Positions 6,487 to 20,749 of a DNA stretch of 64,000 nucleotides are shown here, piece after piece (position 1 is the stretch's first letter; the number at the start of each line of letters is the position of its first letter). The position numbers and the translations under genes are program-made. Source of the DNA: a bacterium. GTDB lineage: Bacteria; UBA8248; JACPRG01; G963555815. The stretch spans positions 608,001-672,000 of the forward strand of contig CBDHDG010000006.1 in NCBI GenBank assembly GCA_965261595.1. The letters run 5' to 3'. The notes beneath the pieces were generated by a model that was not told the origin of the DNA, ran no database searches, and was given only the letters and a program-made list of their open reading frames with translations.

Positions 6487-6603
6487 GTCATTCCCGCGAA
6501 GGCGGGAATCCAGAAATCCATCGAGGTTCGACACGAAGCAATAGAGTCGTGGAAACGGCCTCCCATCCACATCGGCCTGGATTCCCGCCTTCGCGGGAAT
6601 GAC
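6487..6603. repeat. REPIN/dRS3-like inverted pair
   Basis: GTCATTCCCGCGAAGGCGGGAATCCAG (6487-6513) and its exact reverse complement (6577-6603); ATTCCC-N8-GGGAAT core. Confidence 0.85.
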
Positions 6604-6859
6604 CGTCGCGGCGGCTCTACAGCCAGCCGTCCCCCGGAAGCCCGTGCGGACTCCCGTCGGCTCTCAACCGACATCCGCCGCAGTGAAGGGCCTCCAGACA
6701 GCCTGCCATCTTTTTCCGCCTCACATTCGAAATCGTGTGATATCGTGGATGGGCAAAGGACAAACCCCACAGCGCCCGGCCATGGCGCGTGGAGACGCGG
6801 CCCGGTCTCCCCGGCGCGGGGCTCGAGGGCTTCCCTCCTCTCCCGTGAAGGGATTCCCC

Positions 6860-7966
6860 ATGACGAACTCCCCCCGGAGCATCGAAGAAGTCGGCGAGCT
6901 GCTCGACCGGAGCGAGTACATTCCCACGGAGGAGATCTCGACGGCCGTTTTCCTGGCCGAGCGGCTGGGGAAGCCCATCCTCGTCGAAGGCCCGGCGGGC
7001 GTGGGTAAGACCGAGCTGGCGAAGGCCTGGGCGAAGGCCACGGGGCGGGACCTCATCCGCCTTCAGTGCTATGAAGGCCTGGACGAGACGAAGGCCCTCT
7101 ACGAGTGGGAATACGCGAAGCAGATGCTCTATACGCAGCTTCTTCGCGACAAGCTCCAGGACATCCTGGCCGGGACCGGATCCCTGGGCGAGGCCGCCGA
7201 CCGGATCGCCGCCGAGGAGGACGTGTTCTTCTCCGAGCGGTTTCTCCTCCCGCGGCCCCTCCTTCGCGCCATTCAGGCCGAGAAGCCGACGCTGCTCCTC
7301 ATCGACGAGATCGACCGCGCCGACGCGGAATTCGAGGCGTTCCTCCTCGAAATCCTCAGCGATTTTCAGATCAGCGTCCCCGAGCTGGGCACGCTCACGG
7401 CGAAGCAGCGGCCGGCCGTCGTCCTGACGAGCAACAACACCCGCGAGCTCAGCGAGGCCCTCAAGCGCCGGTCGCTCTATGTCTTCATCGACTATCCGTC
7501 CGTCGAGACGGAACTCCGGATCGTCCGGCGGAAGGTCCCGGACCTGGCCCCCGCCCTCGCCCGGCAGGCGGTGGAGGCCGTCCACAAGCTCCGGGGCCTG
7601 GACCTGAAGAAAAGGCCGAGCGTCAGCGAGACCCTGGACTGGGCGAAGACCCTGGTGATACTGAACGCCGAATCCATCGAGCCGAAGGTCCTGGATAACA
7701 CCCTGACGGTCCTCCTGAAACACGAGCACGACCTCATCCGGGCCCGCCGGGCGCTGGCGGCCGAGCGGCGGGCGACGGCCGAGGCCGAGCGGCCGAGCGA
7801 ACCGCAAGCCCCGGAGGGGAGGCGTCCGCCCCGCTCCCCCCGGCCTCCCCGTCCCCCTCGGATCGATCCGGGGGGGTTCGACCCCGAGCGCTTCGACCCC
7901 GAGGGCTTCAACCCCGACATCCTCGGAGGAAACGGACCGGCCGAGGGCGAGACGAATGGAAGATAG
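6860..7966 (+). CDS. MoxR-family AAA+ ATPase (CoxD-like)
   Basis: Walker A EGPAGVGKT, RLQCYEGLD, Walker B LLIDEIDR, LTSNNTRELSEALKRR. Confidence 0.92.
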   Translation: MTNSPRSIEEVGELLDRSEYIPTEEISTAVFLAERLGKPILVEGPAGVGKTELAKAWAKATGRDLIRLQCYEGLDETKALYEWEYAKQMLYTQLLRDKLQDILAGTGSLGEAADRIAAEEDVFFSERFLLPRPLLRAIQAEKPTLLLIDEIDRADAEFEAFLLEILSDFQISVPELGTLTAKQRPAVVLTSNNTRELSEALKRRSLYVFIDYPSVETELRIVRRKVPDLAPALARQAVEAVHKLRGLDLKKRPSVSETLDWAKTLVILNAESIEPKVLDNTLTVLLKHEHDLIRARRALAAERRATAEAERPSEPQAPEGRRPPRSPRPPRPPRIDPGGFDPERFDPEGFNPDILGGNGPAEGETNGR

Positions 7967-9335
7967 GATCGTCGATTTCGTCGCCGGCCTGCGGGGCGCG
8001 GGCGTTCGGGTCTCGGTCGCCGAGAGCGTCGACTGCCTGAGCGCCGTCGATCACACGGGCGCGCGGGACCGGGAGACGTTCCGGCGCGCGCTGCACATCA
8101 CCCTCATCAAGGACGGAAGCGACCTCCCCAAGTTCGAGCGCCTCTTCCCGCTCTATTTCGGCACGGGGGAGAAACCGCTCCTTCAGCCCTCGGACGTCCT
8201 CACGCCGGAAGAGATGAAAACGCTACAGCGGGCGCTGGGGTCCCTCGACCCCGAGCTTCTGGATCTCCTGCGGCAGCTTCTCGAAGGCCGTCCGCTGGAC
8301 CGGGAAGACCTCGATGCCCTGGGCGAGGCGTCGGGGCTTCCGTCGGCCCGGACCCCGTGGGAGCGGCGCTGGGCCGAGCGGCGGATGACGCGGACCCTGG
8401 GCCTGGAAGAAGCGATGGAGGCCCTGGAGCGGCTCCTCGAAGCCCTGGCCGAGATGGGGATGGGCGAGGAGGGGTTGGAGAAGGTCCGTGAGATGTTCGG
8501 GACCAACCTGGAGGCCCTGGAAGAGCAGGTCCGACATCACGCGGGCGGGAGCGTCGCGCGGCGGATGGCCGAGGAGGCGCGGCGGGACGCGGACCCGGAC
8601 CTGATCGACCGGCCCTTTCGGCATCTCGACGAAGCGGAGGCCGAGGCCCTGCGGGACGAGGTCCGCCGCTTGGCGGCCCAGCTTCGGAGCCGGGCGGCCC
8701 TGCGCCACCGGCGGGGGAAAAAGGGCGTCCTCGACCCCAGGGCCACGCTGCGCGCGAACCTGCGCAACGGAGGCGTGCCGATCGATCTCCGCCTCAAGAC
8801 CCGCCGCCTGAAACCCAAGCTGGTCCTCATCTGCGACATCTCCACATCGGTCCGGCACTGCGCGGAGTTCATGCTGCGGCTGATCTACGAGCTTCAGGAC
8901 CAGGTGTCCCGCGCCCGCAGTTTCGCCTTCATCGACCGGATGGAGGAGATCAGCGGGGCCTTCGAGGAGCATCGCCCGGACGCGGCGGTGGAGAAGGTCC
9001 TCCGGGGGCTTCAGCCGGGCCACTACAACACCGACCTGGGGGCCTCGCTGGCGCATTTTTTCGACCGGTCCCTGGACGCCGTGGACGGCCGGACAACGGT
9101 GATCTTCGTGGGGGACGGCCGGAACAACTTCAACGACCCGCGGCTCGACCTGGTGGACGGACTCCGCCGCCGCGCCCGGCGCATCGTCTGGATGAACCCG
9201 GAGCCCCGGCCCCTTTGGGGAACGGGCGACAGCGACATGCCGGCCTACGCCCCGCTCTGCGACCACGTCCACCAAGTGAGCACCCTGGCCGAGCTGGCCG
9301 CCGCCGTCGACCGGCTCTTCCTCCCCGGAAGGTGA
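7956..9335 (+). CDS. VWA domain protein, CoxE-like
   Basis: FVAGLRGAGVRVSVAES, ICDISTSV (MIDAS-like), GDGRNN, WMNPE, WGTGDSDM. Confidence 0.9.
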   Translation: MEDRIVDFVAGLRGAGVRVSVAESVDCLSAVDHTGARDRETFRRALHITLIKDGSDLPKFERLFPLYFGTGEKPLLQPSDVLTPEEMKTLQRALGSLDPELLDLLRQLLEGRPLDREDLDALGEASGLPSARTPWERRWAERRMTRTLGLEEAMEALERLLEALAEMGMGEEGLEKVREMFGTNLEALEEQVRHHAGGSVARRMAEEARRDADPDLIDRPFRHLDEAEAEALRDEVRRLAAQLRSRAALRHRRGKKGVLDPRATLRANLRNGGVPIDLRLKTRRLKPKLVLICDISTSVRHCAEFMLRLIYELQDQVSRARSFAFIDRMEEISGAFEEHRPDAAVEKVLRGLQPGHYNTDLGASLAHFFDRSLDAVDGRTTVIFVGDGRNNFNDPRLDLVDGLRRRARRIVWMNPEPRPLWGTGDSDMPAYAPLCDHVHQVSTLAELAAAVDRLFLPGR

Positions 9336-9609: not shown

Positions 9610-10479
9610 GTGTTCTATGCCCAAATGCTGATCAACAGCCTTCTGCTCGGCGGCATCTACGCGTGTGTGGCCATCGGCTTCTCCCTGGTGTGGGGGGTCA
9701 TGAACATCCTCAACGTCCTTCACGGGACGTTCCTGATGTTGGGCGGCTACATTACATTCTGGCTGTTCCAGCTCTACAGCATCGACCCCTTCATCTCGAT
9801 GCCCCTCACAATGTTGATCATGTTCGGCGTGGGCTATCTGACCCAGTATTGGGTGATCAATCTGGTCATCCGGGCCCCGTTGTTCATCACGCTGATCTTG
9901 ACCTTCGGACTCGAATTGTTCGTGGTGAACATGGCGCTCTATTTCTGGACGGGGGACTACCGGGTCGTCCAGACCGCATACGCCGAGTTCTCCTTCCAAG
10001 TCGCCGGCCTGGTCGTTCCCCTCATTCGCCTGTCGCTTTTCTTCATGGGGTTCCTGCTGACGGGACTTCTGTTCTGGTTCATGGCCAAGACCCGGACCGG
10101 GCGGGCCATCCGCGCCACCCGGATGGATCTGGACGGGGCGCGCCTGATGGGGGTCAACATCGGACGAATTTACGCCATCACCTTCGGTCTGGGCGCGGCC
10201 TTGGCGGGGGCGGCGGGCTCGCTCGTGAGCGTGGGGTTCTCCATCTCGCCCGTGATGGACCTCGAATTCCTGGCCAAGTCCTTCGTCATCTGCATCATCG
10301 GCGGCCTGGGCAACATGATGGGCGCCCTCGTGGGGGGGCTCTTGCTGGGACTCGTCGAGAACTTCGGGGCCTATTATTTCGGCCCCGGTTATCAGAACGC
10401 CATCGGATTCATCATCATGGTCCTGGTCCTGTTCATCCGGCCCGAAGGGTTGCTGGGGAAGGCGGGGTACGCAAAGTAA
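9610..10479 (+). CDS. Branched-chain amino acid-type ABC permease (LivH-like)
   Basis: GFSLVWGVMNILNVLHG, TRTGRAIRA, IIGGLGN. Confidence 0.92.
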   Translation: MFYAQMLINSLLLGGIYACVAIGFSLVWGVMNILNVLHGTFLMLGGYITFWLFQLYSIDPFISMPLTMLIMFGVGYLTQYWVINLVIRAPLFITLILTFGLELFVVNMALYFWTGDYRVVQTAYAEFSFQVAGLVVPLIRLSLFFMGFLLTGLLFWFMAKTRTGRAIRATRMDLDGARLMGVNIGRIYAITFGLGAALAGAAGSLVSVGFSISPVMDLEFLAKSFVICIIGGLGNMMGALVGGLLLGLVENFGAYYFGPGYQNAIGFIIMVLVLFIRPEGLLGKAGYAK

Positions 10480-11472
10480 ATGTTCAGGCCCTGGACGAAA
10501 TTTCAATTGACGGTCTTTGCGCTGGGACTCGTCCTGTTTGCCTTGATTCCGGTTTTCGAGCCCAATGACGAGATCCGGAAATGGTTCGACGTTCTTCTCA
10601 TCGCCATCCTGGCCATGAGCTGGAACTTCATCGGCGGGCTGACCGGATACCCCTCCTTTGCGCCCGCCGCCTTCTTGGGGATAGGTGCCTACATGACGGC
10701 CATCTTCATGAACGCGGGGGTCGGTTTCTTCCCCACGCTGCTCATCGGGGCGTTCGCCGGCGGGCTGGTGGCCTTCGTATTGGGCGTCCCGATTCTTCGC
10801 CTGAGAGGGCACTATTTCGCGATCGCCACCTACGGCGTCGCGGAGGCCATCCGCGAGCTGGCCGAAAATTTCGAGATCACGGGCGGGGGAGAGGGAATCA
10901 ACCTGCCGCTGATCAGCGGCGGCCCCGACTTCTTCACGCGGTACTTCTATTACGCGATGCTCGGGGTCGCGCTCTTGTCCTTTCTGACCCAGTATTGGGT
11001 CACCCGAGGCCGCCTCGGCTTCGGTCTGGTCGCCATCCGGGAGAACGAAGACGCCGCTGCGATGCTGGGCGTGGAGACCACCAAGTACAAGATTTACGCC
11101 TTCGTCCTCTCGGCGATCTATCCGGCCATGGCGGGGGGGGTGTACGCCTACCGCGCGGCCTTCCTGGAGCCGATCGACGTTTTCGACGTCCTGTTCTCCA
11201 TCCGGGCCATCGTCATGTCGCTCATCGGGGGGGCCGGGACCATCATGGGTCCCGTCCTGGGCGCCGCTTTCATCGAGCTCGTGAACGATTATCTCTGGGG
11301 AGCGTTCCTGGAGTTCCACAGCGCGTTCCTCGGGATCGTCATGGTCGTGGTCGTGATCTTCATGCCCAAAGGGTTCTTCTCCCTCTACCAGGGATTTCGG
11401 GCCAAGGGGAAGGGGAGCTGGAAGTCGATCGGGCCGGTTTTGCTCGAGAACATCCGGCGATACCGCGTATGA
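10480..11472 (+). CDS. ABC permease (LivM-like)
   Basis: SWNFIGGLTGYPSF, LRLRGHYFAIAT, AIRENEDAAAMLGV. Confidence 0.92.
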   Translation: MFRPWTKFQLTVFALGLVLFALIPVFEPNDEIRKWFDVLLIAILAMSWNFIGGLTGYPSFAPAAFLGIGAYMTAIFMNAGVGFFPTLLIGAFAGGLVAFVLGVPILRLRGHYFAIATYGVAEAIRELAENFEITGGGEGINLPLISGGPDFFTRYFYYAMLGVALLSFLTQYWVTRGRLGFGLVAIRENEDAAAMLGVETTKYKIYAFVLSAIYPAMAGGVYAYRAAFLEPIDVFDVLFSIRAIVMSLIGGAGTIMGPVLGAAFIELVNDYLWGAFLEFHSAFLGIVMVVVVIFMPKGFFSLYQGFRAKGKGSWKSIGPVLLENIRRYRV

Positions 11473-12233
11473 GCGGAGAAATTCTTCTCGAAGGCAAAGG
11501 CATCACAAAAGGATTCGGGGGACTGACCGCGGTCTCGGACGTGGATTTCAACGTCCGCAAGGGCGAGATCCTCGGTCTCATCGGCCCGAACGGCGCAGGC
11601 AAGACCACCCTGGTCAACTGCATCACCGGGGTCTTCCCCATCTCGAAAGGGACGCTCATCTTCAACGGAACCCGTCTCGACGGTCTGAAACCCCATCAGG
11701 TGACGCGCCTGGGCATCGCCCGCACCTTCCAGATCGTTCAGCCGTTTCCGAGCCTGTCCGCGCTCGACAACGTCTTGATGGGCGCGCTGTTCGGCCACGC
11801 CCACAATGAAAGCACCATCACCCGCGCCAGAGAGATCGCCAGAGAGAAATTGGAATTCGTCGGTCTTTCCCCGATGGCGGATCGGGTCGCCGGGGAGCTC
11901 ACGCTGGTGGAGCGGAAACGACTCGAGCTGGCGAAGTCCCTGGCCACGAGCCCGGAACTGCTGCTCCTGGACGAGGTCAACGCGGGGCTGAACCACACCG
12001 AGACGCAGGAGGCCATCGACCTCATCCGCAGGGTCCGGGACCAGGGGGTCACCATCCTGATCATCGAGCACGTCATGAAGGTGATCATGGGGCTTTCCGA
12101 CCGGGTGTTCGTCCTTCATCACGGTGAAAAAATCGCGGACGGCAACCCACGGGACGTCACCAGCGACAAGGAGGTGATCCGTGCGTATTTGGGGGACAAA
12201 TTCGCCGCCCGCCTTGCTGAAAGCGGCGGATGA
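11469..12233 (+). CDS. ABC ATPase (LivG-like)
   Basis: GLIGPNGAGKTT, GIARTFQ, LLLDE, IIEHVM. Confidence 0.92.
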   Translation: MSGEILLEGKGITKGFGGLTAVSDVDFNVRKGEILGLIGPNGAGKTTLVNCITGVFPISKGTLIFNGTRLDGLKPHQVTRLGIARTFQIVQPFPSLSALDNVLMGALFGHAHNESTITRAREIAREKLEFVGLSPMADRVAGELTLVERKRLELAKSLATSPELLLLDEVNAGLNHTETQEAIDLIRRVRDQGVTILIIEHVMKVIMGLSDRVFVLHHGEKIADGNPRDVTSDKEVIRAYLGDKFAARLAESGG

Positions 12234-12262
12234 GGATCGAATCGCCGGTGAGGGGCCATTCA

Positions 12263-12994
12263 ATGCAAACCACGAACGGATCGCCGCTCCTGAAGGTCGA
12301 GGGCCTCGAATCTGGATACGGAGACATCCAGATTCTTTGGGGGATCGATCTCGAGGTCCATTCCGGTGAGATTATCGCCATTGTCGGAAGCAACGGCGCC
12401 GGAAAAACAACCTTTCTGCGGACCCTCTCCGGCATCTTGACGCCGACAGGAGGCTCTTTCGTATTCGACGGCGAGCCGATGGAGCGCGCAACCTCCGATC
12501 AAATTGTCGAGCAGGGCATCTCTCATGTCCCCGAGGGGCGCCGGCTCTTTCCCGCCATGTCCCTCGAAGACAACCTCCTGATGGGGGCCTATGCCAGGAA
12601 GCTCTCCGCCAAGGAGCTGCAGCCGGACATCGAACGGGTCTTCCAGCACTTCCCCGTTCTGCGGGAGCGGCGGGATCAATTGGCCGGCAGCCTGTCCGGC
12701 GGCGAGCAGCAGATGTGCGCCATCGCCCGCGGGATGATGGCCTCCCCCAAGCTCTTGCTGATCGACGAGCTTTCCCTGGGCCTTGCCCCCCGCATCGTGG
12801 AAGAGCTTTCCGTTATCGTGCAGGGGATCAACGCCGAGGGCGTCACGGTCATCCTGGTCGAGCAGGACGTCTTGACGGCCTTCGAGCTGGCGGGCCGCGC
12901 CTATGTTTTTGAAACCGGCCGAATCACCATGTCAGGGCCCAGCCGGGAATTGATGGAGAACCCGGAAATCAAGCGGTCCTACCTGGGCATGTGA
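12263..12994 (+). CDS. ABC ATPase (LivF-like)
   Basis: GSNGAGKTT, VPEGRRLF, LSGGEQQM, DELSLGLAP; the start could also be 12230. Confidence 0.92.
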   Translation: MQTTNGSPLLKVEGLESGYGDIQILWGIDLEVHSGEIIAIVGSNGAGKTTFLRTLSGILTPTGGSFVFDGEPMERATSDQIVEQGISHVPEGRRLFPAMSLEDNLLMGAYARKLSAKELQPDIERVFQHFPVLRERRDQLAGSLSGGEQQMCAIARGMMASPKLLLIDELSLGLAPRIVEELSVIVQGINAEGVTVILVEQDVLTAFELAGRAYVFETGRITMSGPSRELMENPEIKRSYLGM

Positions 12995-13150
12995 AAACCG
13001 CGCCGGCATCACTCCCGGAAGCCCTGTCCGGGGGCTTTCCCGGGGTCTGACTTCATTGTTCATTCCCCACGAACCTGATATGATCGCTCCATGCATTCCA
13101 GGCGCGGCGCAATTCCCGATGAATCCACGCCGAAAGGGCGGCTCCCGCCG

Positions 13151-15478
13151 ATGACGCCCCTCTCCCTGGTTGGAACAGGCGCACCCCGGATCGACGGCCC
13201 CGGCAAGGCGACGGGGGAGACCCCATATCTCTCCGATATGCAACTGCCGGGAATGCTTCACGCGCGAATCCTCCGCAGCCCCCACGCCCACGCCCGCATC
13301 CTGAAGATCGACACCGCCCGGGCGGCCTCCGCCAAGGGGGTCCGAGCCGTTATCACGGCGGACGACACACCCAAGATCCTTTTCAGCTTCATGCCCGAGC
13401 TGGCCGACAAGCTGCCCCTGTGCGACGAGAAGGTCCGCTTCATCGGGGACGAGGTCGCCGCCGTGGCCGCCGACACCGAAGACACGGCGGAAGAAGCCCT
13501 GTCTCTCATCCGGGTGGATTACGAGCCGCTGCCCGCCGTCTTCGACCCGAAAGAGGCCGTCCGGGACGACGCCCCGCTCGTGCATGAGGGGAAGGCGCGG
13601 AACATCTGCATGGAACTCCACAAGATGTTCGGCGACCCGGAGAAGGGTTTTGCCGAGGCGGACCACATTGTGGAGGACTCCTACGACACCCGGCGCGTCG
13701 CCCATTGCCCCCTGGAAACCCGGAGCTTCATCGCCCGGTGGGAGCGCGCGGGGCATGACTCCCGGCTCAAGATCTGGGCGTCCACGCAGGCCCCGCATGT
13801 TCTCAAGGAAGACATCGCCCGGTGCCTCGGGATGGACTCCCGGCGGATTCAGGTCATCAAGCCGGCCACCGGCGGGGCCTTCGGGAACCGGATGATCATG
13901 GAGATGGGGGCGCCCAGCGCCGTGATTTTGGCGGAGAGAACCGGCCGACCCGTGAAGCTGGCCAACACGCGGACCGACGAATTCCAGATCTCCCGAACCC
14001 GTTTTCCGTATCACATCGAGCTGAAAACCGGATTCCGCTCCGACGGACGCCTGGTGGCCCGCGCGATCCGGATTGATGTGGACAGCGGGGCCTACTCCGA
14101 CAAAGCCGGCCCCACGCTGAGCTTCTCGGGCGCCATGTTCGCCGTTCTCTACAACGTGCCCCACATCCAATTCGACGGCTACGTCGTCTACACCAACCAA
14201 CAACCCGGAACGGCCTTCCGGGGCTTCGGCTGCCCCCAGGTCACCTTCGCCGCCGAGACCCAGATGGACCGCATCGCGAAATTCCTGGAGATGGACCCGC
14301 TGGAGCTGCGCCGGATCAACGCCAACCGGGCGGGGGAGACAAGCGCCTCGGGCGTCACGCTCCCCACCTGCGGCCTGGAGCAATGCATGAAGGAAACCGC
14401 CCGGGCGGCCGGTTGGGCGGAGCACCGGAAAGGACGCAATGAGAATTCCCGCGGCGGCGGCCGCTACCGCCGGGGAATGGGCCTCGCCGTGATGGTCCAC
14501 TCGGGCGGCGGGTCCCGGTATTACGGCTTCAACTCCGCGGGCAGCTTCATCAACGTCTCCCGGGACGGCCAGGTCTTCCTGACCACCCCCGCCAACGACA
14601 CGGGCCAGGGCGCCCTCACCGTGATGGCCCAGGTGGCCGCCGAAGAGCTCGGCGTCCGGATGGAGGACATCCGGGTCGTCTCGGACGACACGGATCTCGT
14701 GCCTTACGACGTCGGAAACTACGGCAGCCGGACCACCTGGGTCTGCGGCCAAGCGGCGAAGGCGGCTGGAGAGGAAGCGCGCCGGCAGATCTTCGAGGCC
14801 GTCGGCAAAGAATGGGAGGTCTCGCCGGAAGACCTGCGCGCCGCCGATTCGAGGATCTTCGCCGTGGGGCGCCCGGAGCAAGGCATGAGCTTTCAGGACG
14901 CGGCCTCAATGATTTACAACAACAACGGCGTCCCCATCACGGCCGAGGGCCGGTTCGAGGACGTGGAGGCGGCCGGCCACGTTGACTGGAGCAACCAGAT
15001 CCCCAACTTCTCCACCGGCTGCCACCTCGTCGAGGTCGAGGTGGATATGGAAACCGGGGCCGTGAGCCTCCTGCGGTTCTTCGCCGCGCACGATGTGGGC
15101 AAGGCGGTGAACCTGCGCGGCGTCGAAGGACAGATCGAGGGCGGCGTCGGCCAGGGTCTCGGCTACGCCTTGTTCGAGGAGCTGGTCCAGGACGCGGGCG
15201 CGGCGGTTAACCCCTCGTTCGTCGACTACAAGATCCCCTGCGCCCTGGACATACACGGCATGGAGACCTTCGTCGTGGAGGACGCGGAGCCGGGGGCGCC
15301 GCTCTACGGCGCCAAGGGGGTCGGCGAGCCGGGCTTGGTCCCGACGGCGGCCGCGGTGGCGAACGCCATCGCCGACGCGACGGGCGTCCAGCTCCACGAG
15401 CTGCCCATGAATCCCGAAAGGGTGTATCGGGCCCTGAGGGAGGCCGAATCGGTCAAGGCGCCCCAAGAAGTCGTTTGA
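13151..15478 (+). CDS. Xanthine dehydrogenase-family molybdopterin-binding (large) subunit
   Basis: LRSPHAHARI, GGAFG, TAFRGFGCPQ, GQIEGG, KGVGEPG. Confidence 0.92.
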   Translation: MTPLSLVGTGAPRIDGPGKATGETPYLSDMQLPGMLHARILRSPHAHARILKIDTARAASAKGVRAVITADDTPKILFSFMPELADKLPLCDEKVRFIGDEVAAVAADTEDTAEEALSLIRVDYEPLPAVFDPKEAVRDDAPLVHEGKARNICMELHKMFGDPEKGFAEADHIVEDSYDTRRVAHCPLETRSFIARWERAGHDSRLKIWASTQAPHVLKEDIARCLGMDSRRIQVIKPATGGAFGNRMIMEMGAPSAVILAERTGRPVKLANTRTDEFQISRTRFPYHIELKTGFRSDGRLVARAIRIDVDSGAYSDKAGPTLSFSGAMFAVLYNVPHIQFDGYVVYTNQQPGTAFRGFGCPQVTFAAETQMDRIAKFLEMDPLELRRINANRAGETSASGVTLPTCGLEQCMKETARAAGWAEHRKGRNENSRGGGRYRRGMGLAVMVHSGGGSRYYGFNSAGSFINVSRDGQVFLTTPANDTGQGALTVMAQVAAEELGVRMEDIRVVSDDTDLVPYDVGNYGSRTTWVCGQAAKAAGEEARRQIFEAVGKEWEVSPEDLRAADSRIFAVGRPEQGMSFQDAASMIYNNNGVPITAEGRFEDVEAAGHVDWSNQIPNFSTGCHLVEVEVDMETGAVSLLRFFAAHDVGKAVNLRGVEGQIEGGVGQGLGYALFEELVQDAGAAVNPSFVDYKIPCALDIHGMETFVVEDAEPGAPLYGAKGVGEPGLVPTAAAVANAIADATGVQLHELPMNPERVYRALREAESVKAPQEVV

Positions 15479-15547
15479 CTAATGGAGGGAAATCCGGGTA
15501 CTGTCATTTTCACTCAAAATGAACTTCTGAACAGGAGGGGGAGACCA

Positions 15548-16777
15548 ATGAAACGTTGTGGTTTGTTCCGAAGCTTGGTTGCACCCGTGTTGGCCGCGGC
15601 CGTTCTGATCGCCGGCGCGGCGTTTGTCGGAGACCGGGCGCAGGCGGCCATGGACGTCATCAAGTTCGGCGCCGCCCTGCCGCTGACCGGTCCGCTGGCC
15701 ACCGAGGGAAACAAGCAGAAAGCCGGTTATGAGATCTGGAAGGACCTGGTGAACAGCCAGGGCGGCATCAATGTCGGCGGCAAGAAGATGAAGGTGGAGA
15801 TCAGGTACTACGACTACGAGAGCAAGACGCCGGTCGCCAGCAAGCTTTACGAGCGGCTGATCACAAAGGACAAGGTGGACTTCCTGTTCGGGCCGTTCGG
15901 AAGCGGGGCCACCGCGTCGGTCGCCGCCTTGACGGAGCGTTACAAGATTCCGATCATCGCGCCGACGGCCAGTTCGGCGAAGCTGTACGCACGGGGATAC
16001 TCCTACCTCTTCGGCCTCCTGGTGCCCAACAACTTCGTCTCGGACAGCTTTTTCGAGTTGGTGACCTCCCAGAACCCCCGCCCGAAAACAATGGCCTTCG
16101 TGACGCGCAACGATTTCTTCCCCAAGGTCATCACGGGCGTTTTCCAGAATGCCGCCAAGAAGTACGGCGTCAAGGACATCTACTACGCCAAGTTCCCCAA
16201 AGACGCCAAGGACATGTCCACCTGGCTGACGATAGTCAAGAGCAAGAACCCCGACCTTCTGATGGTGGCCGGCTACCTGGGCGACTTGATCCTGGTGACA
16301 AAGCAGGCCAAGGAGCTCGGCGTCAATCCCAAGGCCATCTTCATGACCGCCGGACCGGTTTATTCCCAGTTCACCGAGGCCCTGGGCAAAACAGCCGACG
16401 GCATCACGACGGCCTCCTGGTGGGCGGACACCCTGGATTACAAAGGGCGCATCATCGGAACGCCGGACGATTTCAGCAAGATGTGGAGGAAAAAGACCGG
16501 CAAGGAGGCCGATTACGTCTCCGCCGCTTCCACCGCCAGCGGCGTGGTCTACCAGATCGCCATCGAGAAGGTGGGAAGCCTGGATAAGAAAAAAATCCGG
16601 GCTGCCCTGGCCGCGATGAACGAGATGACGTTCTACGGCCGGGTCAAGTTCAATAAGAACGGCCAGAACATCGGGAGCATCGTCCCGGTGATCCAGATCC
16701 AGAAGGGGAAGCGGCTTCCCGTATCCCCCAAGAACATGGCCCAGGGCAAGTATCAGTATCCCAAGCCGAAGTTCTAA
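15548..16777 (+). CDS. ABC substrate-binding protein (Liv/PBP type 1)
   Basis: Signal peptide, IKFGAALPLTGPLA, VNSQGGI, DKVDFLFGPFGS. Confidence 0.9.
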   Translation: MKRCGLFRSLVAPVLAAAVLIAGAAFVGDRAQAAMDVIKFGAALPLTGPLATEGNKQKAGYEIWKDLVNSQGGINVGGKKMKVEIRYYDYESKTPVASKLYERLITKDKVDFLFGPFGSGATASVAALTERYKIPIIAPTASSAKLYARGYSYLFGLLVPNNFVSDSFFELVTSQNPRPKTMAFVTRNDFFPKVITGVFQNAAKKYGVKDIYYAKFPKDAKDMSTWLTIVKSKNPDLLMVAGYLGDLILVTKQAKELGVNPKAIFMTAGPVYSQFTEALGKTADGITTASWWADTLDYKGRIIGTPDDFSKMWRKKTGKEADYVSAASTASGVVYQIAIEKVGSLDKKKIRAALAAMNEMTFYGRVKFNKNGQNIGSIVPVIQIQKGKRLPVSPKNMAQGKYQYPKPKF

Positions 16778-16789
16778 GCCGCAATCCCG

Positions 16790-16825
16790 AGCCCCCGCCC
16801 CTCTCTTGGGGGCGGGGGCTTTTTT
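16790..16825 (+). terminator. Intrinsic terminator
   Basis: AGCCCCCGCCCC/GGGGCGGGGGCT stem followed by a T run. Confidence 0.85.
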
Positions 16826-16946
16826 ATTTTCGGGCGTCGCGCGCGAGAAGGGGGAACTGTAGCCCGGGAGCCCCAGGCCTGGAGGGCCTCGGGCCCGGAG
16901 GGCTCCGGCCCGCTCCATCCGCCACGCCCGCTCCGGAGAGACGCCG

Positions 16947-17780
16947 ATGACGACGATCCGCCTGCTGGAAGAGGAGGAGATCCGCCGCGCCGCGCCCGAA
17001 ACCGTCGATCAGATCCTGGCCGCCGAGAAGGCCCGGTGGGGGATTCCCAAGCTCGCCAACATCTGGCGCTGCATGGGACACCAGCCCGAGTACCTGGAGG
17101 TCACGTGGAAGAAGGCGAAGTCCGTCCGCCAGCCCGGGAAATTGTCCAACCTGACGCGGGAGATGATCGCCTCGGCCGTCTCGGCCGCCAACGGGTGCCG
17201 CTACTGAACGGACTCCCACGTCGCCGCCGTGATGCGGATGGGAAAGGGAGAACGGGCGGTTACGGAGCTGATATCCATCGTGGACCTGGTGAGCGGGCTT
17301 TCCAAGGCCGCGCTCGGAGCGGGGCTCTACGCGCCGGAGGCGGAGGGGGTGACACCGCCGGGGATGATCCTGGGGCTTGTGGACGAGGAGAGCGCCAAGG
17401 GCCGGGTCGCCAAGGTCTTCGGGGAGATTCGAGAGCGCGAGGCGGAGCGTCTCGGACGGGACACCATACCGCTCTTTTGGCGGGCCATCGCCCACCGGCC
17501 GCTCTACCTCGAAGCCGCCTGGAACCGCTCGAAGGTTCTGCTCGCCGAGGGCGAGATCACCCTCAAGGAGAAGGAAATCCTCGGCTACACCGTCGCCGCC
17601 AACGTCGGCAGCCACTACTTCGGCCACGAGCACGCCACCGCCCTGCGCCGGCTGGGGATGGACGACTCCGCCCTGGTCGAGGTCCTGGCCGTCGTGGACT
17701 ATTTTGAAGGGCTCAACCGCGTGAGCGAGGGCATGGACATCGAGTCGGATATCGCGCCGTATCGGGAGTATGAGAAATGA
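16947..17780 (+). CDS. Two-domain AhpD/carboxymuconolactone decarboxylase-family protein; probable selenoprotein (TGA 17205-17207 = Sec87)
   Basis: ORFs 16947-17207 and 17229-17780 are in the same frame. Read-through gives VSAANGCRY-U-TDSH, the CxxCxxxH motif of AhpD-like proteins. A SECIS-like hairpin follows. Confidence 0.8.
17214..17243 (+). promoter_or_regulatory. Putative bacterial SECIS element
   Basis: UCCCA/UGGGA lower stem, CCGC/GCGG upper stem, apical loop CGUGAU starting 21 nt after the UGA. Confidence 0.6.
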
Positions 17781-18081
17781 TACCTTTGGGATTTGGGGGA
17801 TCGTGACCAATACCGCCACAGAACTCTAAACCAAATGCGAGTTGGCCCATCCATCTTCCATATACGCTTTTTCAATCGAAGACCCGCGTCCATGCTAACG
17901 CTGCCCAATGCATGTCAACCAGCCACACCAACCAGCTCATGCCAACCGGCTATATTGAAGAGATATGCTAAATCCTATCTTTCATCCACAGGTTTCTCCT
18001 TCCACTTTACCTGATCATCCCCCCAAAACTTAGGCATCCAAAATCTCATTTCTTTGTTATTAAAATCGCCATGTTTGACAG

Positions 18082-20749
18082 TGGACTTACCCCGGTTTCG
18101 TGGAGAGTTAAGCACTTGGGTTTTCAGGGTGTGCGTTGTTGTCTCCTCCCCCGCTCTAGGGTTTTGTTGGACACTCGATTGATCCATGATTCATGGAGAA
18201 AGGGGTGTCGCGATGAACGAACAAAAGCAAGAGGGGGCTTTGGCGGAGGGCGCCCGCAGGGCGAACGGAGCCAAGGCCCCAGGGCATCGCAGTGAGCGGG
18301 GTCGGTTCTCCTGCCAGCGCAAGCGGGAGGCGGTCCTGCGTCTTTTGCGGGGCGAGAGCCTGGAGACGCTCTGCCGCGAGTTGGGCACGACAGCGGCTCG
18401 GCTTTCCGCCTGGCGCGAGGCGTTCCTTCGCGGGGGCGAGGCGGCGCTCAAAGCCCGCCCGGCGGATGAGCGGGACGAGGAGAACGCCCGGCTCAAGGCC
18501 AAGGTGGGCGAACTCACGATGGAGGGCGAGGTCCTGCGGGAGAAGATCGACCGCCTGGAGGCCGGCCGCCCTTTAGCCGGCAGGAGGTGGAGGCGATGAG
18601 TCAGGCCCGCTTCACCTCCACGGGCAGAGCCTACGGCCTGAAGCGGGTGTGCGCCCTTTGGGGCTTGGCGCGCTCCACGGTCTACGCGCAACGGCGGCGA
18701 GAGGCGGTCCCCGTTCATGAACGCCCCACGCCCCATAAGCGCGGCCCTGTGGGCCCGTGCACCGATGCGGAACTCCTCGGCCACATCCGGCAGGTCCTGG
18801 AGGACTCTCCCTTCCATGGCGAGGGCTACCGCAAGGTGTGGGCGAGGCTGCGCTTCGCGGGCATCCGCACCAGCAAGGAGCGGGTGCGTCGCCTGATGCG
18901 GGAGGCGGGGCTTCAGGCCCCCCACCGGGTGGGCAAACCCCGAGGTCCCAAGGCCCACAACGGGACCATCCGCACCGAGCGGCCCGACCGAATGTGGGGC
19001 ACGGACATGACGACGACGGTGACCACCGAGGAGGGGGTGGCCTCGGTGTTCGTGGCGGTGGATCACTGCTCGGTGGACTGCGTGGGGATCCATGCGGCCA
19101 AGAGCGGCAACCGCTTCGAGGCCCTGGAGCCGATCCGGCAGGGGGTCGCCGAGCGCTTCGCCGGCTTGGAGGCGGACGTCGCCGAGGGGCTTAAAGTTCG
19201 TCACGACCACGGCCCCGCCTATCTGTCCGATGACTTTCAGCGGGAGATCGCCTACCTGGGCATGACCAGTTCGCCCAGCTTCGTGCGGGCGCCCGAGGGA
19301 AATGGCTACTGTGAGTGGTTCATCCGCATCTTGAAGGAGAATCTCCTGTGGGTGCGCTCTTTCGCCACCGTAGAGGAACTGCGGTGGGCGCTGCTTGAGT
19401 TCAAGAACCTGTACAACCATCATTGGATTCTCGAGGGCTACGGCTACCGAACGCCGGCCCAGGCAAGGCAGGAAAAACTCGCTCAAGTTGCGGAGGCCGC
19501 ATGAGGTCGAATACCCTCACCCGAGTGTCCAATAACCCAGGGGCGGTCCACTCCTTTCGTAGTTAACGGGTGACAGGTTGTCGATGGAGGAGTGCCGACG
19601 ATGCGGGTTGTAGAAGCCCTCGATGAACCCGAACACCTCCATGCGCGCCTCGGCCCGGGTGCGGAAACTGTGGCGAGCGAGGAGCTCGCACTCCAGCGTG
19701 GCGAAAAAGCTCTCACACAGCGCGTTGTCGTAGCAGTCCCCGACCGAACCCATGGAGGGACGCCCGCCCGCCTGGCGGCAGCGCTGCCCAAAGGCGACCG
19801 AGGTGTACTGCGTGCCCTGGTCGGAGTGGTGGATGACGGCCCGGGGACGGCGCTTATACAGCGCCATGTCGAGCGCGTCGAGCACCAACTCGGCCCGCAG
19901 GTGTGTGGCCATCGACCACCCCACGATGCGCCGGCTGAACGCATCGAGCGCCACGGCCAGATACAAAAACCCCGCCCATGTCGGAACGTAGGTGATGTCG
20001 GCCACCCACAGCCGGTCGGGGGCCTCGGCCGTGAAGTTGCGGTCCACCAGATCAGGGGCCGGCCGCGCCTCCTGCCGGCGCTGCGTCGTGCGCGCTCCCT
20101 TGCGCCGACTGACGCCCGCAAGTCCCGCCCCACGCATCAGCCTGGCGACGCGCTTGCGGCCCACACGCACTCCCTCAGCCTCCAGCTCGGCATGGACGCG
20201 CGGCACGCCGTAAGTCCCCCGAGAACGCTCGTGGATCGCCTGAATGCGTTTGGTGAGCGCCCGATCGGTACACGAGCGGGCACACGGCGCGCGCCTGCGC
20301 CACGCGTAGTAGCCGCTGGAGGAGACGCCCAGCACCCGGCACATGGTGGCGGTCCGATACATGGCCTGGTTCGCCCTCACGAACCCGTAGATCCGGACGG
20401 GATCGAATCGGTATCCCGAGCAAACCAGGCCGCGGCTTTTGCTAAGATCTCCCGCTCCTGGCGGAGCTGTCGGTTCTCGCGGCGAAGTCGGCGCAACTCC
20501 TCCCGCTCATCGCTCGTGAGCCCGTCTTTGCGACGCCCCTCGTCAACGTCGGCTTGATGGGCCCAGGTGCGGATCGTCTGCGCCGAGGGCTCGAACTCGT
20601 GCGCCAGCGCCTCGGGCGTGCGTCCCGCCCGGACCAACTCTACCATCTGGCAGCGGAACTCCATTGGATAGCGTGGGTGAGTCTGTGGCATCGTGAACAC
20701 CTCCTTTACCCCCAAATCATCAGGTGTCCACCAAACCGGGTCAACTCCA
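18082..20749 (-). mobile_element. IS3-family element, copy 1 (interrupted by a nested IS)
   Basis: Ends TGGACTTACCCCGGTTTCGTGGA / TCCACCAAACCGGGTCAACTCCA; orfA 20377-20691, orfB 19517-20380 (WVADITY, HHSDQG, CESFF); near-identical to 55138-56397. Confidence 0.93.
18147..19550 (+). mobile_element. Second IS3-family element nested in the orfB 3' end of copy 1
   Basis: orfA 18213-18599, orfB 18596-19504 (WGTDMT, RHDHG, PEGNG); imperfect IRs sharing TTGGACACTCG; CTCC duplicated at 18143-18146 and 19551-19554. Confidence 0.9.

Follow-up and report, generated by a model that had tools for sequence, protein, structure and literature searches.

A UGA-interrupted gene in a UBA8248 bacterium very probably encodes a two-domain AhpD/CMD-family selenoprotein

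Introduction

AhpD-like proteins (COG2128) and proteins with a carboxymuconolactone decarboxylase (CMD) domain, both carrying selenocysteine (Sec, U) in a CxxU motif, were reported as selenoproteins from the Sargasso Sea in 2005 by Zhang, Fomenko and Gladyshev (PMC1088965). The Global Ocean Sampling data of 2008 contributed 299 sequences of the group 'AhpD-like 1' and 70 of the CMD-domain group 'AhpD-like 2' (PMC2398784), and a 2026 review of selenoprotein families lists AhpD-like (TIGR01926), CMD-like (PF02627), AhpD-related (NF041238) and distant AhpD (NF041047) groups (PMC13188914). According to the 2005 paper and the review, the function of the AhpD-like selenoproteins has stayed uncharacterised since their first prediction (PMC1088965, PMC13188914). 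BSepDB places metagenome-assembled genomes (MAGs) of GTDB UBA8248, labelled Nitrospinota/Nitrospinaceae, among the most selenoprotein-rich bacteria, with 48-54 genes (PMC13326102). Here we describe a gene from a UBA8248 bacterium which very probably belongs with these selenoproteins and which encodes two AhpD/CMD domains in tandem. It lies at 16947-17780 on the plus strand of a 64-kb stretch of DNA (the window), which corresponds to positions 608001-672000 of contig C6 (CBDHDG010000006.1) in a genome of 6.17 Mb and 7 contigs (GCA_965261595.1). Our literature search on the lineage, which took in neither supplements nor BSepDB, found no paper describing this protein.

Results and Discussion

Gene and reading frame

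A single reading frame runs from an ATG at 16947 to a terminal TGA at 17778-17780 (277 codons plus the stop), and its only internal break is a TGA at 17205-17207. Under translation table 11 the frame is divided into two open reading frames, 16947-17207 (86 residues) and 17229-17780 (183 residues, with a GTG start), and read-through joins them into a product of 277 residues with the motif N-G-C84-R-Y-U87-T-D-S-H91. A preliminary description, made from the sequence alone, had put forward this 277-residue protein, parted only by the TGA, and its coordinates and motif were reproduced in our analysis. A GGAGAG at 16935-16940 (+), 6 nucleotides before the ATG, is likely to serve as the Shine-Dalgarno sequence.

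The N-terminal domain (about residues 1-137; 16947-17357, +) is recognised by the Pfam CMD and TIGR00778 models and is catalytically equipped, with E72, C84, U87 and H91. The C-terminal domain (residues 138-277; 17358-17777, +), which was delimited by alignment to the first domain and by a second CMD stretch, is degenerate and has S-H-Y-F in place of C-x-x-U. Conservation, homologues with Cys and contigs from other sequencing runs all point to the UGA at 17205-17207 (+) being read as selenocysteine U87, the second redox position of C84-x-x-U87-x-x-x-H91. We hold with high confidence that 16947-17780 is one genuine selenoprotein gene, routinely mis-split, whose UGA is decoded as Sec.

Conservation of the UGA codon

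Of the 51 genomes searched in the phylum, 31 gave matches (E <= 1e-15), and an in-frame TGA is present in 40 of the 40 matches. Thirty-three copies were extracted for alignment, comprising the window gene, a paralogue from its own genome and 31 genes from relatives, at 28-100% identity; a frameshifted paralogue from the same genome (L036), in which C-P-Y-U is present as well, was excluded from this set. In each of the 33, the TGA falls at the fourth position of C-x-x-U, and x-x-x-H comes after it. Across alignment A3, C84 is invariant and position 87 and H91 are nearly invariant. One orthologue belongs to a Nitrospinota-labelled MAG. Scanning named genome records yielded 11 further loci, in MAGs that carry the labels Methylomirabilota, Rokuibacteriota, Limnocylindria and Dehalococcoidia, and 10 of these loci have the same C-x-x-U.

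Protein databases give a different picture of the family, as the preliminary description had anticipated in saying that gene callers split the gene in two. An exhaustive search found close relatives as fragments only, either an 86-residue N-terminal piece or a C-terminal piece of ~170-190 residues starting from M96, together with distant full-length two-domain proteins. A word-indexed search returned C-terminal fragments and single-domain proteins and no full-length relative. The residue at position 87 in homologues had been named early on as informative, and the outcome favours Sec: all closer homologues have TGA, and ten distant full-length two-domain homologues aligned at the U column have Cys (8), Ser (1) or no recognisable motif (1). 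The protein searches found no TGC or TGT form among relatives above ~36% local identity.

Independent sequence data, another check suggested at the outset, agree with the window. Contigs from two other DNA studies cover the whole stretch with the TGA unchanged and differ from the window only at 17466, so the TGA is not an assembly error. A contig from an RNA library that spans 17105-17257 shows no difference from the window; cover in the RNA libraries is broken at 17258-17461 in X15, and at 17190-17325 and from 17564 onwards in X16. The change at 17466, A>G relative to the window, occurs in both DNA contigs (X4, X7) and in the RNA-library contig X16 and is a strain variant within the gene.

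A recent nonsense mutation, or a sequencing or assembly error, in a CxxC gene would make the locus a pseudogene, and damage of this kind does occur in the family, as paralogue L036 (stop or frameshift) and the degraded locus L071 illustrate. This explanation is nevertheless hardly credible for the window gene, given the in-frame TGA in all phylum matches and in 10 loci from other phyla, the lack of TGC or TGT among the nearer relatives and the identical TGA in the contigs of the two other DNA studies.

Three further AhpD-like genes with C-x-Y-U are present in the genome, at G000:C4:199603-200406 (L035), G000:C2:154503-155126 (L036) and G000:C6:1478413-1478556 (L037). They include a 38%-identical two-domain paralogue which lies between a molybdenum-enzyme large subunit gene and a PhzF-like gene, and a single-domain form. 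L036 is a two-domain paralogue of 33% identity, broken by a stop or frameshift beyond about residue 217. The eleventh locus from other phyla, L071, which shares a MAG contig with L063, is degraded; it lacks the C-x-Y before U and stays in frame only to about residue 95. Rows with two TGA codons were considered as candidates for a second Sec and rejected, as the extra TGA is the terminal stop codon in all of them except L050 (G004:C75:15776-16579). This paralogue has an additional in-frame TGA in its second domain (Y-F-V-D-U-I-R-Q), in a column that is Ala in relatives. We take it as damage or error, and a second recoding site could also fit.

Probable selenocysteine insertion sequence

A hairpin lies directly 3' of the UGA where a selenocysteine insertion sequence (SECIS) element is expected. 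Its upper stem-loop (17224-17237, +) consists of CCGC at 17224-17227, the loop CGUGAU at 17228-17233 and GCGG at 17234-17237, and the first base of the loop is the 21st nucleotide after the UGA. A possible lower stem (17214-17243, +) pairs UCCCA at 17214-17218 with UGGGA at 17239-17243 and encloses the upper hairpin; 90.9% of its alignment cells are paired. The positions of hairpin and loop given in the preliminary description were borne out, and comparison shows the structure to be conserved and covarying.

This comparison used an ungapped alignment of the UGA and the following 51 nucleotides in the 33 copies. RNAalifold returned one helix, columns 20-23 with 30-33 (17224-17227 with 17234-17237), closing a loop of 6 nucleotides, and the upper stem pairs in every sequence. 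The pair 17225/17236 covaries, being CG in 30 copies, UA in 2 and GU in 1, and is A-U in the Dehalococcoidia-labelled locus L072. Taking both stems together, 94.9% of cells are paired, a share that falls to 35-47% once the 3' partners are shifted by 1-3 columns. One pair of the lower stem is changed on both sides, and this stem is the weaker evidence because its bases are also fixed by Ser-His and Met-Gly codons. The loop varies between CGUGAU, GGUCAU and CGGGAA, with an invariant G as its second base at 17229; conserved G residues of the apical loop are highlighted for bacterial SECIS elements in the 2005 survey (PMC1088965).

Synonymous sites gave the strongest single result. Among 36 conserved four-fold codons in 41 copies, the lowest third-position entropies belong to R97 (0.00; G in 37 of 37) and A93 (0.61; C in 37 of 41), and the remaining 34 sites range from 0.93 to 1.89. 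The third positions of these two codons, 17237 and 17225, are both in the stem, and the four exceptions at A93 are sequences in which the partner base has changed as well. Selection thus acts on the structure of the RNA, precisely at the place expected for a SECIS element.

Selenocysteine machinery

The preliminary description had suggested searching the genome for the Sec machinery, and its components were found. The selA (550 bits) and selB (390 bits) genes are adjacent to each other, selD (330 bits) has an in-frame TGA of its own, and a tRNA-Sec (72 bits) is called tRNA-SeC(tca) by ARAGORN; all four score above curated cut-offs. The selD gene (L010, G000:C5:89297-90265) is itself a selenoprotein gene with the motif G-G-U-G-S-K, and a GGUCC-CGA-GGACC hairpin lies 3' of its UGA at a distance similar to that of the hairpin in the AhpD-like gene. 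With this machinery, SelB and tRNA-Sec would decode the UGA at 17205-17207 as Sec under direction of the hairpin at 17224-17237, and the pairing of 17214-17218 with 17239-17243 may lengthen that hairpin.

The UGA could instead be read through without Sec, either by near-cognate insertion of Trp or Cys or by a local recoding independent of SelB. We consider such read-through highly improbable in a genome with complete Sec machinery, where the hairpin stands at the typical bacterial SECIS distance and has an invariant loop G. The site also counts against it, since the UGA occupies the redox Cys of CxxC, a classical position of Sec/Cys exchange.

Protein fold and proposed chemistry

The two halves of the read-through protein are homologous, with 28% identity over 119 residues in a gapless alignment (E 1e-20) which sets C84, R, Y, U87 and H91 opposite S, H, Y, F and H. 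This agrees with the earlier proposal of two similar domains, the second having SHYF for CxxC. Two stretches of the protein match Pfam CMD (PF02627), with a score of 77.5 bits (cut-off 23), and the better one (residues 47-121) runs across the UGA; TIGR00778 (ahpD_dom) scores 51.2 against 27.8. Pfam DehI (PF10778) scores 17.8, under its cut-off of 28.9. An AlphaFold2 model of the read-through protein, built on an alignment of 29 sequences, is all-helical with a mean predicted local distance difference test score (pLDDT) of 93.3 and a predicted template modelling score (pTM) of 0.91, and its helix 85-97 runs through U87. Foldseek found the best whole-chain match for this model in 2q0t, over 262 columns with template modelling scores of 0.63 for the query (TMq) and 0.70 for the target (TMt), followed by the AhpD-core structures 2prr, 6k40, 2oyo and 2ouw and then by the Bmp8 debrominase and Mycobacterium tuberculosis AhpD (1knc). 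A profile search of PDB sequences matched AhpD-core 2ouw at 5e-29. The modelled fold is a tandem AhpD/CMD pseudo-dimer.

These results bear on the version of the locus that gene callers produce, in which the UGA is a true stop and the locus makes two products, an 86-residue peptide and a 183-residue protein starting from the GTG at 17229. Databases do hold fragments of these sizes, and TGA is an ordinary stop elsewhere in the window, where it terminates 7 of 10 neighbouring genes. Two separate products are still very unlikely: the CMD domain and a predicted helix cross the UGA, all 33 extracted copies keep frame and spacing, even at 28% identity, distant homologues form one unbroken chain and carry Cys at the UGA position, and immediately 3' of the UGA the synonymous sites show the constraint of a hairpin.

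Read as one selenoprotein, the AhpD/CMD protein is most likely a thiol/selenol-disulfide oxidoreductase or a peroxidase-recycling protein. U87 would attack and C84 would resolve, giving a selenenylsulfide in the first domain. H91 and E72, at +4 and -15 from U87, have the spacing of the His137/Glu118 proton relay of M. tuberculosis AhpD. The second domain is most likely a redox-dead copy which, as a built-in partner, takes the place of the other subunit in the usual CMD dimer.

Several points weigh against the selenoprotein reading or its details. We infer the insertion of selenium at U87 from sequence. The RNA-library contigs may contain DNA, so they show that the gene is present and do not prove its transcription. 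For the hairpin, the covariation score was reached by 0 of 500 shuffles, a significance inflated by the kinship of the sequences, and the other three of the four upper-stem pairs are invariant and uninformative either way. A single-sequence fold of 60 nucleotides from the UGA has z = -1.35, with 25 of 200 shuffles folding as well, and in its minimum-energy structure the outer bases have other partners than in the comparative consensus. As the lone fold is no better than chance, the reality of the hairpin rests on the comparative data. A scan of 16900-17800 against Rfam at E <= 10 gave no match to a SECIS family; the only match, to JUMPstart on the minus strand with 17.3 bits against 35, was put down to chance. 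The protein does not reach the curated cut-off of any specific NCBIfam (seleno)protein model, including TIGR01926 peroxidase-related enzyme (64.1 bits against 81.8), TIGR00777 AhpD proper (30.9 against 191.95) and NF041238 AhpD_rel_CFYUT (44.5 against 175, over 57 residues of a 357-position model), to which it does not belong, so that none of these models assigns it a subfamily or substrate. The roles given to E72 and H91 are carried over from the biochemistry of AhpD.

Genomic neighbourhood

The selenoprotein gene is preceded directly by a gene for a leucine-isoleucine-valine (LIV)-type periplasmic solute-binding protein (Peripla_BP_6; 15482-16777, +), which is a conserved neighbour, and two genes upstream lies the molybdopterin-binding large subunit of a xanthine-dehydrogenase-family enzyme (13091-15478, +). 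Further upstream on the same strand are four genes of a LIV-type ABC transporter (9610-12994), which precede the large subunit, a CoxE-like VWA gene (7956-9335) and a CoxD-like AAA ATPase gene (6599-7966). A putative terminator, recognised by its consensus as a hairpin of 14 pairs (11 G-C) with a T run, stands between the binding-protein and selenoprotein genes (16789-16821, +). Directly downstream are two IS3-type elements, each with an HTH_Tnp_1 and an rve integrase reading frame (18186-19504, +; 19517-20715, -).

Parts of this arrangement recur in relatives. An orthologue of the binding-protein gene is directly upstream and co-oriented in 12 of 12 loci (L023-L034, 1.5-kb flanks), and the large-subunit gene is two genes upstream in the window, L060 and L061. 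The genes downstream differ from the IS3 elements of the window: genes for flavin adenine dinucleotide (FAD)-binding and 2Fe-2S subunits follow directly in all seven loci of genus g7, and MutY in L026 and L060. Searched with the g7 proteins as queries, the 64-kb window contains no FAD-binding or 2Fe-2S subunit genes, so the cluster is incomplete here or those genes lie elsewhere. The lineage of the 38%-identical paralogue has a large-subunit gene directly upstream in 4 of 6 loci (one contig ends and one locus is without it) and a PhzF-like gene downstream in 5 of the 6. No AhpC-type gene was found among the neighbours scanned. The linkage to molybdenum-hydroxylase genes is thus real in the phylum; it is not universal and does not define function.

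The recurrence raises a narrower proposal, that the protein is a real selenoprotein dedicated as an accessory or catalytic partner to the pathway of the adjacent xanthine-dehydrogenase-type molybdenum enzyme, for which reductive processing of a substrate or product (for example Bmp8-like dehalogenation) and cofactor maturation are possible roles. The constant binding-protein gene, the FAD and 2Fe-2S genes of g7, the three large-subunit genes at the same remove, the paralogue lineage that also follows a large-subunit gene and the presence of the CMD-family debrominase Bmp8 among the fold matches all speak for such a partnership. It is unlikely all the same: the nine loci scanned in other phyla lack any such neighbour within 3 kb, three of them having a HAD hydrolase upstream, the terminator-like hairpin parts the selenoprotein gene from the upstream gene in the window, and a neighbourhood alone does not show function. 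More doubtful still is the specific form in which the tandem Sec AhpD protein would be a selenol-based reductase, dehalogenase or maturation factor working with the molybdenum hydroxylase on a substrate imported by the LIV-type transporter. The redox chemistry, the substrate and the functional tie to the molybdenum hydroxylase and the transporter are what we infer for the selenoprotein.

At two of the MAG loci, L062:1032-2432 (+) and L064:186-1628 (+), the AhpD-like gene has a DUF3179 (PF11376) gene 0.6-1.4 kb upstream of it. A single in-frame TGA interrupts the DUF3179 gene, whose read-through contains Y-U-T-L-C-G, a UxxC motif. This DUF3179 gene probably encodes another selenoprotein.

Significance and comparison with known systems

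The main value of the analysis is a correction of annotation, as a conserved, probably expressed redox enzyme is stored publicly as two fragments only, and the same mis-split affects no fewer than 31 genomes of the phylum, as well as MAGs from several other phyla. The gene extends the catalogued CxxU AhpD/CMD selenoproteins by an architecture that is tandem and half-degenerate, and provides a clean natural example of a SECIS element freezing synonymous sites. The recurrent molybdenum-hydroxylase neighbourhood offers a testable handle on the function of AhpD-like selenoproteins. Should the partnership with the molybdenum enzyme be true, the protein would connect molybdenum hydroxylase catabolism with genetically encoded Sec, a link kept by the phylum in two paralogous gene pairs. 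The preliminary description presented the locus as a hidden selenoprotein; the Sec reading is supported, whereas its novelty was overrated, CxxU selenoproteins of the AhpD/CMD type having been catalogued since 2005.

With those catalogued selenoproteins the window protein shares its Pfam family, Sec as the second redox residue of CxxU, a SECIS element directly 3' of the UGA and homologues with Cys. It differs from them in being a 277-residue tandem CMD protein with a degenerate second copy that falls under the TIGR01926 cut-off, and in belonging, within its phylum, to a cluster with a molybdenum hydroxylase and a LIV-type transporter. NF041238 (AhpD_rel_CFYUT) likewise describes an AhpD-related domain with C-x-Y-U. 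M. tuberculosis AhpD (1knc, 1gu9) has the same fold (Foldseek TMt 0.74; profile match 2e-8) and the same CxxCxxxH spacing, and in that enzyme the second Cys acts as nucleophile, helped by His at +4 and Glu at -15. The window protein has Sec in place of this second Cys, is a two-domain chain and has no AhpC gene in view nearby.

Other CMD-derived folds are found in the Bmp8 debrominase (6ohi/6ohj) and in the DehI 2-haloacid dehalogenases (5gzx, 3bjx), the latter also being tandem pseudo-dimers. The profile search matched the window protein to 5gzx at 2e-13 and to Bmp8 at 8e-3, whereas superposition on DehI is poor (TM 0.17-0.24), and the comparison with Bmp8 and DehI gave no evidence for halogenated substrates. 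The closest structural parallel is 2q0t, a putative gamma-carboxymuconolactone decarboxylase subunit from Burkholderia xenovorans, which is likewise a two-domain CMD protein, so that tandem CMD is a known architecture; 2q0t is 18% identical to the window protein and is not a selenoprotein record. What distinguishes the window protein is its tandem pairing of an active with a degenerate domain, for which there are precedents in Cys-containing proteins and solved structures, together with its recurrent molybdenum-hydroxylase neighbourhood.

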